The position numbers and the translations under genes are program-made. From a virus, in the IMG/VR virus record IMGVR_UViG_3300036770_005754, positions 7,472 to 71,471 of that record: a DNA stretch of 64,000 bases, one strand, 5' to 3'. Shown here piece after piece: positions 27,332 to 64,000 of the stretch. A model generated the notes under the pieces. It ran no database searches, had not been told where the DNA came from, and saw only the letters and a list, made by a program, of their open reading frames with translations. Numbering within the stretch: the stretch's first letter is position 1; each line of letters starts with the position of its first letter.

Positions 27332-27370
27332 TATTAGGCGGCAGCTCAAAAATATTCGTAGGAGGTATAT

Positions 27371-29560
27371 ATGCGCAGTGTCATTTCGAAGCTCAATAGA
27401 AGACTACGACCAATATTTGAATCATCCGCAGAACCAGTAGAGCATATATGGTGGAAGAGCCCTGACTCACCAGATTATAACAGGCAATTGGCAGAAGATG
27501 CTTTATATCATACAATAGGCCCCCTTACAAATAACCCCAGATGGGCATCAGAATGGACCAGCAAGAGTGAGCCTGTGCCAGGATTCGTTGGTGGTGGCCC
27601 AGCACCAAGATGGGACGAACATGAAATAACAATGGCTATGGCTGGTGATCAGTCTTACCAAAGAGGGCCAATGAGCCCAAAAGGTTCTCCAATATATAGA
27701 TTAGCTATGAAAACAGCTAGAAAATTTGGTAGAGAAAATGACCAAGATTTAATAGCTGACTTCTATGCTAATGGTCTCCTGAGACTCGCCACCTTAATGA
27801 AGCCAGGATATGACCAATCGAGAAGTACATTTATACAATATGCACTCCCATATATCAGAAGTGCGATGGATACAGGCACTGGTAAGACTCTTGCAACACA
27901 AGCAGCAGCTGGTTTCAGAAGCGAAGGTGGGATAGTGGGCTTCAAAGGTCTTCTCGACTATAATATCACACAAGGAGACCCTGAAAGAATCCGTAAAATC
28001 GCAACGCAAATAAAAGGGAAATACAGAGAGCAGAGGAGTCATGACAAAGACAAAGGCAACCCATTAGGACCATATTCAAAGGCTTTTTGGGAACTAGCTA
28101 ACGCATATGCAGACGCACTTGAATCCGATAATGAAGACCGCATCGAGGCAATACGTCATCAAATAGGCCAAAAGATAGAGGAAATAGAATCAGAGTCGAC
28201 TGTCCTTGGTGCACGACTTGGCATAGGCCAAGCTATGACGGATCCGACTAGAAAAACGCCAATGAAGATTGTGAGCGTAGATGCTCCTATGGGTGACGAC
28301 GAAGGTTCGTCCACAATCGCTGGATCACTAGAATCCAAAAAAGAAGATGAAGCGGAATGGATAACACCGCAAGTAATCAATAAAGTGCTTATGATGGCAT
28401 TGGACGAAGAATGGATGAAATACACTGCTATCAAAATGAAGTCCGACAAAAAACTTGCAGCATTCGCAGTAGAGAAATTGGGGCTAACAGAAGTAATTAA
28501 CGAACCACTGACAGCCAATGAGTTTAGGTTCGTCATCAGAACCCTGGGCACGATCGCGTCAGAGTATCCCGGAAAAGGCGTGGTCAGAAAGAATATCAAT
28601 ATGCCCAGGAACTCCAAAGGGTGGTGGAAGCCTGGTGAAGATCCTGAAATAGAACCATTTTCATACGTGAAAAAAGGTACCAATGAGAGAATACAAAAAA
28701 TGTGGAAATCAAGATGGGCCACAGGACGTAAAGATCCAGGGCAAGATCCGAATGAGCCATATAAGAAAATGAATAACACGGAAATAATGAGAGAGATGTT
28801 CGCAGAAAATGACGAGTTCAGAAGACTAGCAATACGAACTGCTACGCCAGTGAAAAAAGATCAGATCGCCGAAAAGTATGCTGAATACTTCGGCAGACTA
28901 TTAGACACGAGAAACCCTGAGGAACTGGCTAAAATTCGTTCTGAATATATGGCGGTATACCCTGAAAACGATCGATATTATCACTACATCAATACTAACA
29001 TACCAAGATACATAGCGGCCCTAAAGAAAAGGGACAATAAAACAATAGAGAGATATAATAAAGAATTCAGGACTAAATTTGATATGAACTCTGGAGAAGT
29101 CACTAGAGTGACGGGTTTCAGTCCCGTAACAATCGGCGAGCAGTTAAACAGAGCTTTAAATAAATTAAAAATAATAGTATTCTCAGAACGCAGAGATCTT
29201 GAAGACCCACAAGTAATCAAACCATCAAAATTGAAAGCCAGCGAACCAGAAGGTCCAGCGCTAGCTGAAGAATTACACAGATCACATCCAATTGACAGAG
29301 AATTAATCATAGAAGCTTGTGAATGGATGTGCTCAAAAATCGAATCAGTATTAAATGAGAAATCACCGCCGGGGTGGAAGAAGACAGTCGAACATATGAA
29401 AGAAAAGGGGATGACTGAAAAAGAAGCGTTCTCAAGAGCTTGGGCCACACATAAGAAGGGTGGGTCGAGGCCCGACAGAAGAAAGAAAAATAAATACTAT
29501 GTTGAAAGTTCAATGAAGCCAATTGATTCAATATCGGATGACATATATGAAATTGAATGA
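27371..29560 (+). CDS. Highly divergent, insertion-rich sigma70-like protein
   Basis: Region 2-like TARKF...DLIAD...NGLLRL...GYDQSRSTFIQYALPYIRSAM; region 3.2-like IVSVDAPMGDDEGSSTI; region 4-like LTANEFRFVIRTLG, MNNTEI, TIGEQLNRALNKLK. Confidence 0.55.
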   Translation: MRSVISKLNRRLRPIFESSAEPVEHIWWKSPDSPDYNRQLAEDALYHTIGPLTNNPRWASEWTSKSEPVPGFVGGGPAPRWDEHEITMAMAGDQSYQRGPMSPKGSPIYRLAMKTARKFGRENDQDLIADFYANGLLRLATLMKPGYDQSRSTFIQYALPYIRSAMDTGTGKTLATQAAAGFRSEGGIVGFKGLLDYNITQGDPERIRKIATQIKGKYREQRSHDKDKGNPLGPYSKAFWELANAYADALESDNEDRIEAIRHQIGQKIEEIESESTVLGARLGIGQAMTDPTRKTPMKIVSVDAPMGDDEGSSTIAGSLESKKEDEAEWITPQVINKVLMMALDEEWMKYTAIKMKSDKKLAAFAVEKLGLTEVINEPLTANEFRFVIRTLGTIASEYPGKGVVRKNINMPRNSKGWWKPGEDPEIEPFSYVKKGTNERIQKMWKSRWATGRKDPGQDPNEPYKKMNNTEIMREMFAENDEFRRLAIRTATPVKKDQIAEKYAEYFGRLLDTRNPEELAKIRSEYMAVYPENDRYYHYINTNIPRYIAALKKRDNKTIERYNKEFRTKFDMNSGEVTRVTGFSPVTIGEQLNRALNKLKIIVFSERRDLEDPQVIKPSKLKASEPEGPALAEELHRSHPIDRELIIEACEWMCSKIESVLNEKSPPGWKKTVEHMKEKGMTEKEAFSRAWATHKKGGSRPDRRKKNKYYVESSMKPIDSISDDIYEIE

Positions 29561-30782
29561 TGCAGTTACAGCATCTGTGATGGAGTCAAACCTCTTCACG
29601 ATAAATGAAGAAGACGAAGGACCACGATGGCAATTTAATTACAACGGTAAAAAAGTAACGGACTTCAACCCAGACATACTACTACTGGGGGCTTATAAAC
29701 ATCCGACTACAGGTAACAATCTCATAGGCGGTATAAATCTGAACTACATATCGCCTAAACAAAGAGACCAAATAGCTTACGCACTACCGCAAATAATAAA
29801 TGCTGAGAACCTACTAGAAAGGTACTGGATCGGAAGAAGTCTACTCCCAGAAATATTTAAAAATTATTACAGAACATATAATCCAAAATATATCAGAGGA
29901 GTTAAAAAGGACGTCATGTATCCGAAGTACGGATACCTAAAATCTGCACAAAACTGGGCAAAAAAGAAGATAGGCAGTATATTTAAATCCAAAGAACAAA
30001 GGTCGAAAGAACTAGAACCGAAGTATCGTGAAGACCTGGCTGCCATGTCAGATAAACTGGATCAAGTGGTATCACAATTATCACAAGATCAAGAGACGAA
30101 CACGCCAGAAGTGCAAGCAGCAATGAGAGCTGCAAAAGATTTCCAACGCCAAAAATCAGTGCGAGAAATAGGACGCCAAGAAATAGAACCACTGAGAACA
30201 GCACGACGAGATCTAGAAGCAGCACAACAAGAGCCAGGAATGCAACCTCCAGAGGAATATGAAAACTCTGAAGTAGGAGCCGGAATGCTTCCGAAAAAGC
30301 TGGAGAGCCGTCCTAGAAGACGACCGGCAATCAGGCCGCTTAAAAGACAAAAAGAACCAACGGAACCAACGGGAGGGCTCCCAGCGGTGTCTCCACCAAG
30401 AATGGAAAAGCCTGGCGATACAGAACAGCCGACCCTTCGACCATCGCCAAGTGAACCAAGAAATAGAAGACCAATAGGCAGATCCACACCAGAAGACGCA
30501 ATAAACAGACCGAGAAGGCCAATAGGCAGGCCATCGCCAGAAGACACGACCGAAAGACCAAAAAGGCCAATTGGTAGACCATCGCCAGAAGACACAATCG
30601 AAAAACCAAAAAGACCAATTGGTAGGTCATCGCCAGACACAATAAAAAAAAGACCGACAAAACGTCAAACACCACCAGCAGTGGATAACGAGATAGACCC
30701 AGACATAGATCTTCAAGAGTCTATTATATATTACTCTCCCGTCGCAGGTCATTACATAATAGAGCATTTCGAATTATCATGA
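29547..30782 (+). CDS. T4 gp2 (DNA end protector)-like N-terminal domain plus Pro/Arg-rich repeat tail
   Basis: PDILLLG...IGGINLNYISPKQR and YRTYNPKYIRG resemble the gp2 GLNLHYL motif; start reassigned to MKLNDAV. Confidence 0.45.
   Translation: MKLNDAVTASVMESNLFTINEEDEGPRWQFNYNGKKVTDFNPDILLLGAYKHPTTGNNLIGGINLNYISPKQRDQIAYALPQIINAENLLERYWIGRSLLPEIFKNYYRTYNPKYIRGVKKDVMYPKYGYLKSAQNWAKKKIGSIFKSKEQRSKELEPKYREDLAAMSDKLDQVVSQLSQDQETNTPEVQAAMRAAKDFQRQKSVREIGRQEIEPLRTARRDLEAAQQEPGMQPPEEYENSEVGAGMLPKKLESRPRRRPAIRPLKRQKEPTEPTGGLPAVSPPRMEKPGDTEQPTLRPSPSEPRNRRPIGRSTPEDAINRPRRPIGRPSPEDTTERPKRPIGRPSPEDTIEKPKRPIGRSSPDTIKKRPTKRQTPPAVDNEIDPDIDLQESIIYYSPVAGHYIIEHFELS
30468..30656 (+). repeat. Four ~48-nt coding repeats (RPIGRPSPEDTxERPK)
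   Basis: AGACCAATAGGCAG / AGGCCAATAGGCAG / AGGCCAATTGGTAG / AGACCAATTGGTAG at 48-nt spacing. Confidence 0.85.
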
Positions 30783-31121
30783 ATCAACACTACCAATAAA
30801 TATCTTTAAAGTAAAATGCTTAGGCTTACTGTATGAAACTTTTATAGGTATGTGCGACATACCATACTCATCAGTTGTTCCGGTATAAATAATATCACGC
30901 TCATGAAGCTCCCAGCGAAATCTATTAGCAGCGTCGCCACGATACTTTACAGCCATAACGGTCTCAATACCTAGCGTACCACCGACAGGTGTCGGCTGCT
31001 TCATCCCATTATATGGTTTAGTCCTAACTACACGTTCGATGTTCACATAAACTTCATTTTTAGCTTCATCAATTAAATCATAACCAAGATTTTGGAATCT
31101 AAATTCAACGAATTCTGTCAT
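30777..31121 (-). CDS. Hypothetical protein
   Basis: 114-aa ORF coupled to the large structural-type gene. Confidence 0.6.
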   Translation of the reverse strand: MTEFVEFRFQNLGYDLIDEAKNEVYVNIERVVRTKPYNGMKQPTPVGGTLGIETVMAVKYRGDAANRFRWELHERDIIYTGTTDEYGMSHIPIKVSYSKPKHFTLKIFIGSVDS

Positions 31122-33586
31122 GTAATCTCCAGTTGACCATAAGTGAACTCGCTGAACACAGTGGCCTGAGTGCGTATGTCGACTCTCCTAATCTTCGCAC
31201 CAGGCCACATCCTCAAACCATTCTTACCAAATTGTCTATTGGGGTTGAGAGTAATCGGGAAGTATGGTGTATCAATCGACACTGAAGTTGGCAGCGCCGC
31301 ACTCAAAGTGGGACTCGGCGGTATAAGCAAACGATTCCACCAGATCCATAATTGATCATCCTTCACCAATACTTCCAATCTGTTCCAATATTCTTCTTGT
31401 AGTCCGCCAATTTGTGCTCCACCATCGTATACCACAAAGCCACTAGGAGATGATTGTGGTTGCGTACCGACTCCAGTGAAAGTACCTGACTGAGAATAAA
31501 TTGCACTCACAGCATATCCGGGTGTTAGCCCCCTTACAAAATCATCTGAATCATCATCAAATATATCATCCTCATATGGTAAGCTCATGTCCAAAATACC
31601 CACCTTGAATTGCAATTGTGTTAAACCTGTTGCTTCGTCGAATGTAAATTCAACGCGAACGACCGTTGAATTATATTCTTGGTGAAGGAGTTCTAAAATA
31701 TCGTCGACGGAACCAGGATATTCATCATTGTTTAGAGAATCACCAGCTAGGATGATATTATCACAATTAGCAGGATAACCACTGGTTAGTTCAGTACCTG
31801 AACTCGATGGGAACATGAATTTTCGATAATAGTTGTAAATCTTGTTATGGTTCTCACCGGGCGATATTACTCTCACCGACCCGAATGGCGGCAAATCATT
31901 GAAATGTACACCACAAACTCTAATATAATTTAGGCCATTCACTTGGCCAGTGCCTATAACACGCATGTATTTGTTCTCATTCTCGTCGATCTGGGCCCTT
32001 ACAACTAAATCGATTGGAGAGAACGAAGAGTTATCTGGCCTACCTATATCCACTCTTGTTAAGGTATTGCAAAAGTTCTTTCTATGCCATAACCATACCG
32101 GTCTTTCACTGAAATCAGCAATCGCATCTTGAGATGATTGGACGACCAAGCCAGGTAGCGTATTATCAATAAAAGCACGATGCTGCTGACTAATATCAGC
32201 GTCTCCTGTCCCTGCTGTCGAAGCTATATCATACCACATCAATGGGTCATCATACCCAGTTAGGCCCCACACACTGCGTTCAAAATCTCTGATCGCGGTC
32301 ACTTGTGTCGAAGAATACTTATCTTCACTACCGGGTCCAGCTAAAATTTCTTCTCTAGCTATAGCGGAATCACCAAACTGAGTAAACCCGGACCATGTCC
32401 AAATATTATTAGGATTTAACGATGGTTTCTTGTTGAAGTAATGTCTAGATATTGGTTCTCCAGCTATTTCTCCTATCTTAAAGGACCATAGGTCCACCAG
32501 AGTACCAACAGGTAACAAATCTATCGTAGAATCGAGTACGATAGACTGAGAGTTAGACCCGGACTGTGGGTTTTCAGGATTGACGTATTGCCAGATATTC
32601 CTGGCCGTGAACGTGTCGCCGACAGCCCTGGCCCCATCTACATCCCACTCTCTCAAAACATATTGATTGGTGCTGAGAATAGCATCTGTATAACTGGTTA
32701 TTACAGCCATCTTCTTGGTTATTAGATGCCCCTTATACAGCAGAGAGCCAAGTAGGCCTGGTTCGGAGCTTGGGTCTAGATCGAATCGTATCTGTGAGCC
32801 ATCGTTGTCCTTCCCCATGAACCAGACCATCTCAGGAACACCGGCGGCCCCCGGGGTCATTGCCCAACCTATTTCTGTAACCATAGAATTGAGCGGATCT
32901 CTCTTCAATATCATCTCATGTTCAGCGACTCCTGGGACTATAGTATCATCGAACCTTTTGAATATGAATGCAGGGTAATTCCCTTTATTATTCAGTGTCG
33001 ATGAAGGATTGCTTGGGTTTACAATCGTCGATTCTGGGAACAAATAAACCTTCATTTCACCATATGAGTTGACGCCCGGTAGTTTCCCAGCACATGTCGG
33101 TGGCCTAACGGATGATATGTCAGTTTCATCTTGGACCCAAAATATTTGTTGGCACGTTTCGCAGGCACAATTAAGAGGTATTGGACTATCGACTGTAAAT
33201 CTAACTACATTGCCTATTCGTTCGATGCTTATAAATTCTGTGCCGGCCGCAAGTATAATATCTCCTTGCATCCAGCCACCATCGTCTGGAAATCCTGCAC
33301 CTTGGAATCCTAATACACCAAGTCTAGTTTGCAATAATGCATCAAGTTTGCATTTGTCGTCGGCGGCCATCAATCCTGGCGTATCACATGTCGCTATCGG
33401 AACTGGGTCCTCCGCGATATGTGTGACACCATGGAATGTTGGAAACAACACCTGAGATTCTTTCATGTACAATGCTCTCTGTTGAGCATCATACTGATAG
33501 CCAGTGGTTATTCCATTTGGTCCCGATACTTGAACGTACTGCCTGTCAACTAATGTCGAGGCCGATGGAACTTTTGATATGGCCAT
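31118..33586 (-). CDS. Large putative virion structural (tail/baseplate) protein
   Basis: 822-aa ORF; AGGAG upstream; GLMAADDKCKLD motif of fibre-type proteins; beta-rich. Confidence 0.55.
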   Translation of the reverse strand: MAISKVPSASTLVDRQYVQVSGPNGITTGYQYDAQQRALYMKESQVLFPTFHGVTHIAEDPVPIATCDTPGLMAADDKCKLDALLQTRLGVLGFQGAGFPDDGGWMQGDIILAAGTEFISIERIGNVVRFTVDSPIPLNCACETCQQIFWVQDETDISSVRPPTCAGKLPGVNSYGEMKVYLFPESTIVNPSNPSSTLNNKGNYPAFIFKRFDDTIVPGVAEHEMILKRDPLNSMVTEIGWAMTPGAAGVPEMVWFMGKDNDGSQIRFDLDPSSEPGLLGSLLYKGHLITKKMAVITSYTDAILSTNQYVLREWDVDGARAVGDTFTARNIWQYVNPENPQSGSNSQSIVLDSTIDLLPVGTLVDLWSFKIGEIAGEPISRHYFNKKPSLNPNNIWTWSGFTQFGDSAIAREEILAGPGSEDKYSSTQVTAIRDFERSVWGLTGYDDPLMWYDIASTAGTGDADISQQHRAFIDNTLPGLVVQSSQDAIADFSERPVWLWHRKNFCNTLTRVDIGRPDNSSFSPIDLVVRAQIDENENKYMRVIGTGQVNGLNYIRVCGVHFNDLPPFGSVRVISPGENHNKIYNYYRKFMFPSSSGTELTSGYPANCDNIILAGDSLNNDEYPGSVDDILELLHQEYNSTVVRVEFTFDEATGLTQLQFKVGILDMSLPYEDDIFDDDSDDFVRGLTPGYAVSAIYSQSGTFTGVGTQPQSSPSGFVVYDGGAQIGGLQEEYWNRLEVLVKDDQLWIWWNRLLIPPSPTLSAALPTSVSIDTPYFPITLNPNRQFGKNGLRMWPGAKIRRVDIRTQATVFSEFTYGQLEIT

Positions 33587-63383: not shown

Positions 63384-64000
63384 TCAGAGGTTGCTTACGG
63401 TGATAACGCCGTAGTAGAGGCCGCCATCCTCGATCAGCTTCTTTCCATATCGTGTCATGATCCCTTTGTTCGGTGTGAAGCTGTTAGGATCGAGGACAGT
63501 TGGAGTGCTCAACAGAGGAATATATGGAGCGTAGAAATAACCAGCGTCTAACACTGAGTTACCCTTGAAGCCCATCAGGATCTTACAATTCGGGAAAAGA
63601 GGGTCTTTGTAGATCTTCATTTTACCCTGGATTGTTCCGATGTTCATGATACCAATATCGACACCTTCTGTCGTAAAGGCGTCGCTCGCTCTGAAATCGT
63701 TCAACTGTTCGAACTTGGAGCAGATGTCAGCAGACATAACCATCCAGTTAGCAGGGCCACGGAGAGTGGTTCTGTGGATGATGTTTGCCACTTCGAGGAC
63801 CTTGTACATCAGAGCGATGTTTCGATCAGTGAAGTTCACCGATGCCCCAGCGGCAGTGGCGAAGTTGTGATTAGCACGAATAGCTGAAGCTATGATGAGG
63901 TCGTTGATGATTTCACGGTCGATTTCAGCAACCATCTCATCGGCCATCAGGTCAGTGAGGGTTGATTCTGCATCGATATTGTGAACCGACTTGAGGTCTT
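63384..64000 (-). CDS. gp23: Major capsid protein, T4 gp23-like (5' part outside the window)
   Basis: Frame open to the window end (DLKSVHNIDAESTLTDLMADEMVAEIDREII); GPANWMVMS, KIYKDP, MGFKG, AGYFYAPYIPL, PNKGIMTRYG. Confidence 0.93.
   Translation of the reverse strand, partial: DLKSVHNIDAESTLTDLMADEMVAEIDREIINDLIIASAIRANHNFATAAGASVNFTDRNIALMYKVLEVANIIHRTTLRGPANWMVMSADICSKFEQLNDFRASDAFTTEGVDIGIMNIGTIQGKMKIYKDPLFPNCKILMGFKGNSVLDAGYFYAPYIPLLSTPTVLDPNSFTPNKGIMTRYGKKLIEDGGLYYGVITVSNL

Follow-up and report, generated by a model that had tools for sequence, protein, structure and literature searches.

Three ways are known in which phages gain control of early transcription: they use the host sigma factor, inject a polymerase of their own or inject an enzyme by which the host polymerase is modified. 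Packaged RNA polymerases (RNAPs) occur in N4, phiKZ and crAss-like phages, and T4 packages the RNAP-modifying enzyme Alt; the T4 late sigma factor gp55 is not packaged. Jumbo phages of 'group 2', which have a T4-type capsid and no RNAP, use the host RNAP together with sigma factors of their own (PMC7824862; PMC13282480). Here we describe a gene found in a 64,000-nucleotide stretch (hereafter the window) of the IMG/VR virus record IMGVR_UViG_3300036770_005754, which is 176,558 bp long, has a CheckV completeness estimate of 49% and is also called G000. The gene encodes a 729-residue protein, P0001, for which a place in the sigma family is supported by several kinds of evidence. We propose, with a probability of roughly 45%, that P0001 is a sigma70-family factor, highly derived, which a T4-like jumbo phage dependent on the host RNAP packages into its head and injects.

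The gene is an uninterrupted open reading frame (ORF) on the forward strand (27371-29560, +), coding for a giant protein of the sigma70 superfamily. Its upstream signals (27347-27365, +) consist of CAAAAATATT at 27347-27356, a near match to the element (C)AAATATA(T) described below, and of an AGGAGG Shine-Dalgarno sequence at 27360-27365, 5 nt ahead of the ATG. A reading made earlier from the DNA alone (hereafter the sequence-only reading) had listed a series of sigma-like motifs, and all were present, in the order claimed. They are IFES (aa 15-18), TARKF (115-119), DLIAD (126-130) and GLLRL (135-139) in the N-terminal part, YDQSRSTFIQYALPYIRSAM (147-166), VSVDAPMGDDEGSSTI (301-316), LTANEFRFVIRTLG (380-393) and MNNTEIMREM (467-476) in the middle, and TIGEQLNRALNKLK (587-600), VLNE (660-663) and YVES (710-713) in the C-terminal part. 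This order exceeds chance, since the NCBIfam sigma-70 family model TIGR02937 aligned aa 109-600 to its positions 11-162 (of 165) as a single stretch (E 1.3e-5, 24.9 bits).

Homologs of P0001 numbered 91 in a set of 5.8 billion proteins. A search of 1.8 billion representatives, clustered at 50% identity, placed 79 clusters in the family, all of them uncultured and carried by contigs of up to 438 kb. Two alignments were built, A1 with 37 sequences and A2 with 65, and the member counts given below are out of 65. In both, the core and an N-terminal leader are conserved. The gene and its protein had no match among 50,697 phage records by blastn and tblastn, single-sequence searches of Pfam, PHROGs and PDB with P0001 gave none either, and the family profile matched no PDB sequence. 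The sole match in 185,579 species genomes covered residues 1-69 of a family member and lay at one end of a 3.8-kb contig (locus L024, JBFJON010000253.1) binned with a Nitrospirales metagenome-assembled genome. This fragment is probably mis-binned phage DNA rather than a clue to the host.

Sigma models recurred across the family. TIGR02937 matched six members (best E 2.6e-6), and the NCBIfam models for FliA/WhiG and for SigB/F/G matched three members each. When each of the 65 members was compared alone to 24,736 Pfam families, Sigma70_r2 was the most recurrent family (10 members, best E 5.9e-4), and Sigma70_r4_2 and GerE matched two members each. The family alignment was then compared by hhalign to six E. 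coli sigma factors, with a reversed control. Residues 109-167 (27695-27871, +), corresponding to sigma regions 2.1-2.3, aligned with sigma70 384-440 at P 0.0013, versus 0.065 for the reversed control. In this register, R385, Y394, D403, G408, L412, F427 and Y430 of sigma70 have conserved equivalents in the family; that of F427 is near-invariant (62/65) and that of Y430 is aromatic in every member. A weak hidden Markov model (HMM) made from six sigma2 sequences matched about 27 members, each time in the interval 109-167. Comparisons by hhalign of sigma4 alone, and of its helices spliced in two alternative registers, were not significant.

The AlphaFold2 model of the whole protein had a mean predicted local distance difference test score (pLDDT) of 84.8, and sigma2 structures aligned on its N-terminal half. 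The Z scores, with the root-mean-square deviation and the number of aligned residues in brackets, were 7.7 for S. aureus SigB (2.0, 76), 7.1 for RpoS regions 1.2-2 (3.2, 89 of 96), 7.0 for E. coli sigma70 (1.8, 71, with 18% identity), 6.7 for sigma32 (4.0, 92), 6.6 for the SigE N-terminal domain (3.7, 77 of 80), 6.4 for T4 gp55 (7d7d_F, identity confirmed; 3.6, 92 of 137) and 6.3 for sigma28 (4.4, 80). Each of these scores would be modest alone for a predicted helical model, and their weight comes from their exclusivity and from their agreement with the profile register. For the C-terminal half, residues 330-560 of P0046, a short member without the insertion, were modelled (pLDDT 94.7; predicted template modelling score 0.91). 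With this model, two of ten Atlas family rows were sigma-70 clusters, and the sigma4 matches began at the first residues of a helical segment (aa 328-398) and finished on a helix at aa 586-611. Altogether, seven sigma2 and eleven sigma4 structures were matched in the fold comparisons. An Atlas shape search with the full model gave no significant match, and Foldseek placed a few large phage proteins annotated 'sigma factor' at non-significant ranks.

Sigma domain 2 is thus recognisable in the family both by profile and by fold. P0001 retains regions 2.1-2.3 (aa 109-167), an acidic loop resembling region 3.2 (299-327) and a recognition helix of sigma4 type (586-600), and four independent lines of evidence converge on the same residues, which supports its assignment as a sigma-family protein. 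The 'atypical phage sigma factor' of the sequence-only reading is therefore borne out by family profiles, profile-profile alignment and fold comparison.

Between and around these conserved parts lie large insertions. The first (aa 169-232; 27875-28066, +), inside sigma2, is family-specific, has about 60 residues and an invariant N-P-x-G-x-x-S, and has no equivalent in the sigma structures that align to either side of it. It is followed by a helical hairpin (aa 233-290; 28067-28240, +), with DSSP helices at 233-252 and 255-274, which completes the sigma2-like domain at the position of regions 2.4/3.0; the sigma2 structural alignments stop at model residues 284-288. Next comes the acidic loop (aa 299-327; 28265-28351, +), S-V-D-A-P-x-G-D-D-E, which is predicted to be disordered (pLDDT <50 for 294-326). 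S302 is invariant in it and D304 is conserved in at least 90% of members. The loop resembles region 3.2 (I-T-S-V-D-T-P-L-G in RpoS) and occupies the expected location, with hhalign P values of 0.06-0.075 that are not significant alone.

The helical segment 328-398 (28352-28564, +) belongs to the bundle of the sigma4-like domain and includes L-T-A-N-E-F-R-F-V-I-R-T-L-G. Inserted in this domain is the block with the strongest conservation in the family (aa 399-465; 28565-28765, +), Y-P-G-K-G...G-W-W...G-E-D-P-E-I-E-P, a beta-hairpin whose strands are present in the models of both P0001 and P0046. Y399, P400, G401, R406, R413, W418, D424, P425, E426, S447 and W449 are invariant or near-invariant, and the block has no counterpart in known sigma factors. 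The helix that follows (aa 466-495; 28766-28855, +; N-T-E-I-M-R-E-M...) packs in the bundle, and its homology to the first helix of the helix-turn-helix (HTH) is uncertain. An insertion forming a generic four-helix bundle comes next (aa 496-580; 28856-29110, +). It is lineage-specific, being confined to P0001-P0004, the closest relatives; most homologs have 10-20 residues there. The last element (aa 586-611; 29126-29203, +; S-P-V-T-I-G-E-Q-L-N-R-A-L-N-K-L-K...) occupies the place of the region 4.2 recognition helix.

Divergent members with a canonical layout helped to place these helices. The Sigma70_r4_2 model matches P0144 at full length (454-504, E 0.013), and the recognition helix of P0144 aligns with the family helix S-K-V-x-V-S-N...K-L-K, which corresponds to P0001 586-600. 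P0134 and P0147 have the same canonical sigma4 layout. On this alignment, the assignment of helix 587-600 as the region 4.2 recognition helix is well supported. In all three members, the canonical 4.1 helix and the first HTH helix are located past the equivalent of 467-485, so that the identity of these two helices in P0001 is uncertain. Of the region 4 helices proposed by the sequence-only reading, the last (587-600) thus stands as recognition helix, but the assignments of 380-393 as 4.1 and of 467-476 as the first 4.2 helix are unsettled. Its claim of large insertions, including one of about 100 extra residues inside region 4, holds, the bundle 496-580 preceding the last helix. In P0116 (475-519) and P0091, the bundle site is occupied by a complete extra canonical HTH, G-V-S-G-A-E-I-A-R-R-F-G-I-S-K-Q-N-V-S-N-R-L-K-K-L-K, which matches the GerE, Sigma70_r4_2 and MarR_2 models. 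This site in sigma4 is prone to domain insertion, and holds little, an extra HTH or a four-helix bundle depending on the member.

Features at both ends of P0001 suggest that it may be processed like a head protein. The first 17 residues (27371-27421, +) make up an amphipathic helix of basic character that ends in I-F-E|S, a candidate propeptide or capsid-targeting tag as judged from its sequence. E is found at position 17 in 58 of the 65 members and I, L, V or M at position 15 in 63; past the leader, the alignments show a linker of variable length, and pLDDT is <50 at residues 18-22. The motif (I/L)-x-E is the one cleaved by the T4 gp21 prohead protease, and capsid-targeting sequences of this form direct IPI-III and Alt to the T4 head. 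Entry into the head by way of the T4 capsid-targeting sequence is well established (PMC3012670). The record codes for a gp21-type protease at 65784-66503 in window numbering, just past the end of the window and adjoining the capsid gene (Peptidase_S77, E 6.3e-18; phmmer with T4 gp21, E 1.5e-14). Since a conserved N-terminal tag ends in a cut site for a head-maturation protease, P0001 may be loaded into the particle. Several unrelated gene families of the neighbourhood have their own conserved (I/L)xE leaders, and across the phage proteome the N-terminal motif occurred 31 times versus 16.6 expected (about 1.9-fold, p 5e-4), a figure that is inflated by paralogs.

At the other end, the last core helix (aa 640-663; 29288-29359, +) finishes with L-N-E, a possible second protease site; D642 is near-invariant, L or I is found at 661 in 44/65 members and E663 in 27/65. 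Beyond it lies a portable C-terminal module (aa 664-729; 29360-29560, +; S-P-P-G-W...A-W...K-K-G), a tail of about 45 residues with the pattern S-P-P-G-W-x-x-T-V-x-x-M-K...A-F-x-L-A-W...K-K-G-x-K-P. The same tail forms the C-termini of unrelated small phage proteins (P0146-P0156), usually right behind (L/I/M)-x-E, and may be a second, C-terminal tag for packaging or processing.

The genome is that of a phage with T4-type virion genes. Searches of the record by phmmer with T4 proteins found homologs of gp23 (5.6e-31), gp21 and gp18 (7.7e-41), as well as gp20, gp17, gp19, gp13 and gp25. The head and packaging module lies at 63384-64000 (-) of the window and continues past it to G000:C1:81400; it comprises genes for a gp23-like capsid protein, a 238-aa scaffold candidate, the gp21-like protease, a 1036-aa protein, a gp20-like portal and a gp17-like terminase. 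Tail sheath, tube and gp25 homologs are found at G000:C1:90310-114547. The gene overlapping the end of the sigma-like gene (29547-30782, +) encodes a homolog of the T4 DNA-end protector gp2, which enters the host together with the DNA and, according to the T4 record annotation, protects injected DNA ends. The homology was detected by hhalign (P 3.2e-5, 45% identity over 51 columns; reversed control P 0.38) and by phmmer (E 0.002), and Pfam and PHROGs did not recognise the gene. Its product starts with a leader of its own, M-K-L-N-D-A-V-T-A-S-V-M-E|S, which is conserved as M-K-L-x-D-A...(L/V)-x-E and has no equivalent in T4 gp2. The overlap of the two genes is kept in three relatives besides the window, and the gene order around the sigma-like gene in four distant relatives. 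The most conserved gene of the neighbourhood (31118-33586, -; 58-77% identity over four distant relatives) encodes an 822-aa protein that belongs to no Pfam or PHROG family; protein-atlas leads (0.86-0.87) point to Mtd_N / DUF2793 tail-fibre-like clusters.

From the leader, the protease and the gp2 neighbour, we infer that head packaging of P0001 is plausible. In the pathway that we propose, the sigma-like protein would be synthesised late, in precursor form, and its 17-residue leader would bring it into the prohead core, in the manner of the T4 capsid-targeting sequence. Cleavage by the gp21-type protease behind E17 would then free the protein of its leader, and a cut behind E663 perhaps of its SPPGW tail. 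Together with the gp2-like end protector, the mature factor would be ejected with the DNA, to act as soon as the next infection begins. There, its sigma2 part would dock on the clamp helices of beta-prime in the host core RNAP, the region-3.2-like loop would enter the active-site cleft, and the sigma4 part would bind the beta flap and promoter DNA, redirecting the host RNAP to phage promoters. The suggestion of the sequence-only reading that the protein could be head-packaged is consistent with the conserved leader ending IFE|S, with the gp21-type protease and with the gp2 homolog downstream, but the VLNE and YVES sites that it also invoked are weakly kept.

A number of observations weigh against this proposal. 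The score of TIGR02937 on P0001 lies under its curated cut-off (42.9 bits), as do the scores of all sigma models under theirs, and a search of the whole record with Pfam Sigma70_r2, r4 and r4_2 gave no match in the P0001 ORF at E<=1. Foldseek found no significant match for the full model in PDB, AFDB clusters and BFVD, nor for the C-terminal model in PDB and Swiss-Prot AFDB. The equivalents of W433 and W434, involved in melting of the -10 element, are not conserved, being mostly R and T/N. The HTH of P0001 is broken by insertions, so that DNA binding by the sigma4 part is not assured. On the side of packaging, an (I/L)xE near the N-terminus is expected by chance in about 9% of windows; VLNE is kept in under half of the members, and the I/L at position -2 of YVES is not kept. 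The sequence-only reading had placed the gene among virion genes, which is partly true: the recognisable head genes are some 34 kb away, and most immediate neighbours match no known family. Finally, if the P0001 family is the only phage sigma of its clade, a conventional role in middle or late transcription is just as natural.

As for the transcription machinery of the clade, a search for beta-prime (RNA_pol_Rpb1_2) in three relatives of 354-408 kb, 98-100% complete and carrying the family, gave no match at E<=1, and the DFDGD motif was absent from the ORFs of the 176,558-bp record. Together with the T4-type core, these results fit the RNAP-less 'group 2'. The gp55 family profile phrog_234 had no match in G000 or in four relatives at this locus; P0001 as a gp55 ortholog was rejected on this ground and for its 729 residues with a region 4. 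Relatives G001 and G002 carry ordinary small sigma70 genes too, and in the complete relative G004 no other Sigma70_r2 gene was detected. Since no other sigma was detected in G004 and none of gp55 type in the clade, the P0001 family may be the universal phage sigma of the clade.

Two classes of intergenic elements were enriched. The element (C)AAATATA(T) was found 20-70 nt upstream of 10-11 genes, versus 2-3 expected (about 5-fold for 10 genes versus 2.1 expected), and is a candidate phage-specific promoter class on the basis of this enrichment; for assigning the sigma-like gene to such a class, the enrichment is weak. Its sites include 27347-27356, 15355, 33654 and others across the record, and among the genes behind them are those for P0001 and the 822-aa protein, one of a repeat family and several on the virion side. 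The most enriched intergenic 8-mer class was TAnnTTTG, with 35 of 142 sites lying in intergenic DNA, which makes up 7.4% of the genome (examples in the window at 601, 9963, 37691 and 40334). It is the -7 element of Bacteroidota sigmaA, and its enrichment hints at a Bacteroidota host. The Shine-Dalgarno core, present in 33% of ORFs, points the other way, as such a frequency is unusual for Bacteroidota.

It is possible, if on balance rather doubtful, that P0001 is an ordinary phage sigma, made de novo during infection for middle or late promoters and never packaged, in which case the N-terminal helix could serve in autoinhibition similar to that by region 1.1, in partner binding or in stability. 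All the evidence for a sigma factor applies equally to this possibility, and RNAP-less jumbo phages are known that have their own sigmas (PMC7824862; PMC13282480). Moreover, with no gp55-type late sigma, and no other sigma in G004, the family may have to serve late transcription, and TAnnTTTG and other host-like intergenic elements could drive early genes without any phage factor. However, an unpackaged sigma leaves unexplained why about 60 of 65 divergent members have an (I/L)xE leader end in a fixed column, followed by a variable linker, why unrelated neighbouring families have such leaders in common, and why a gp2 homolog is translationally coupled to the gene.

The leader, the protease and the gp2 neighbour would also fit a packaged and injected protein that binds the core RNAP without being an initiation factor, that is, a decoy or inhibitor shutting off host transcription, or an anchor for RNAP or for the incoming DNA end. 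The loss of the W433/W434 melting residues, the interrupted HTH with its weak sigma4 similarity, and the lack of a sigma counterpart for the most conserved block (399-465) could be accounted for in the same way. We nevertheless consider such a function unlikely: conservation of the aromatics equivalent to F427 and Y430, of the 3.2-like loop and of the recognition helix exceeds the needs of a simple decoy, and some members keep or regain a canonical HTH.

That P0001 is not a sigma relative, but a helical internal head or structural protein with a chance likeness among helical bundles, is very improbable, since the NCBIfam matches, the Pfam recurrence, the hhalign alignment, the weak HMM matches and the sigma2 and sigma4 structures share the same residues and register. 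A role as promoter-specificity subunit of a phage multisubunit RNAP, of the phiKZ gp68 / AR9 gp226 type and perhaps co-packaged with a virion RNAP, was rejected as hardly credible, because no beta-prime was found in the three near-complete relatives and no DFDGD in the record, and because the T4-type core defines the RNAP-less 'group 2' (PMC7824862), even though sigma-like fifth subunits of jumbo-phage RNAPs exist (PMC13282480) and the record is only about half complete.

If the proposal of a packaged and injected factor is right, it would add a fourth and simpler route to the known modes of early takeover, and, beside packaged RNAPs and packaged RNAP-modifying enzymes, a third strategy among those based on packaging. 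It would also explain how promoter specificity is set at time zero in a clade of giant phages that lacks RNAP. P0001 could then, we suggest tentatively, be the first virion-carried sigma factor, one that reprograms the host RNAP ahead of all phage gene expression; reviews of jumbo phages and a search for sigma factors with a capsid-targeting sequence yielded no account of a packaged sigma. The portable leader and the SPPGW tail may serve as packaging tags. Even if P0001 is not packaged, its family shows that the sigma70 scaffold tolerates insertions in sigma2 and in the HTH of sigma4, and provides a new, deeply divergent sigma lineage for structural work and promoter engineering.

Among the closest known systems are the bacterial sigma70 factors of groups 3-4 (FliA/WhiG, SigB/F/G and extracytoplasmic function sigmas), with which P0001 shares the sigma2 fold and collinear regions 2.1-2.3, 3.2-like loop and 4.2 helix. 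It differs from them by being three to four times larger, by its insertions in both sigma2 and sigma4, and by its propeptide-like N-terminal leader and portable C-terminal tail. T4 gp55 (7d7c/7d7d chain F) has 185 residues, lacks sigma4 and needs gp33 and gp45, whereas P0001 has 729 residues and a region 4. Like the P0001 family, phiKZ gp68 and AR9 gp226 are jumbo-phage specificity factors of sigma-like type that have diverged very far, but they serve phage multisubunit RNAPs, none of which was detected in the P0001 clade. The 'group 2' jumbo phages (Iyer et al. 2021, PMC7824862) have the same T4-type capsid, no RNAP and their own sigmas; these are RpoD-like or minimal, whereas P0001 is missed by Pfam sigma models and has a leader and insertions. 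With T4 Alt and IPI-III, P0001 has in common a short (I/L)xE leader and a gp21-type protease encoded in the genome. Alt is an ADP-ribosyltransferase, not a sigma factor, and has no sequence similarity to P0001; if P0001 is packaged as we suppose, the action proposed for it on the host RNAP at injection would make it a functional analogue of Alt.

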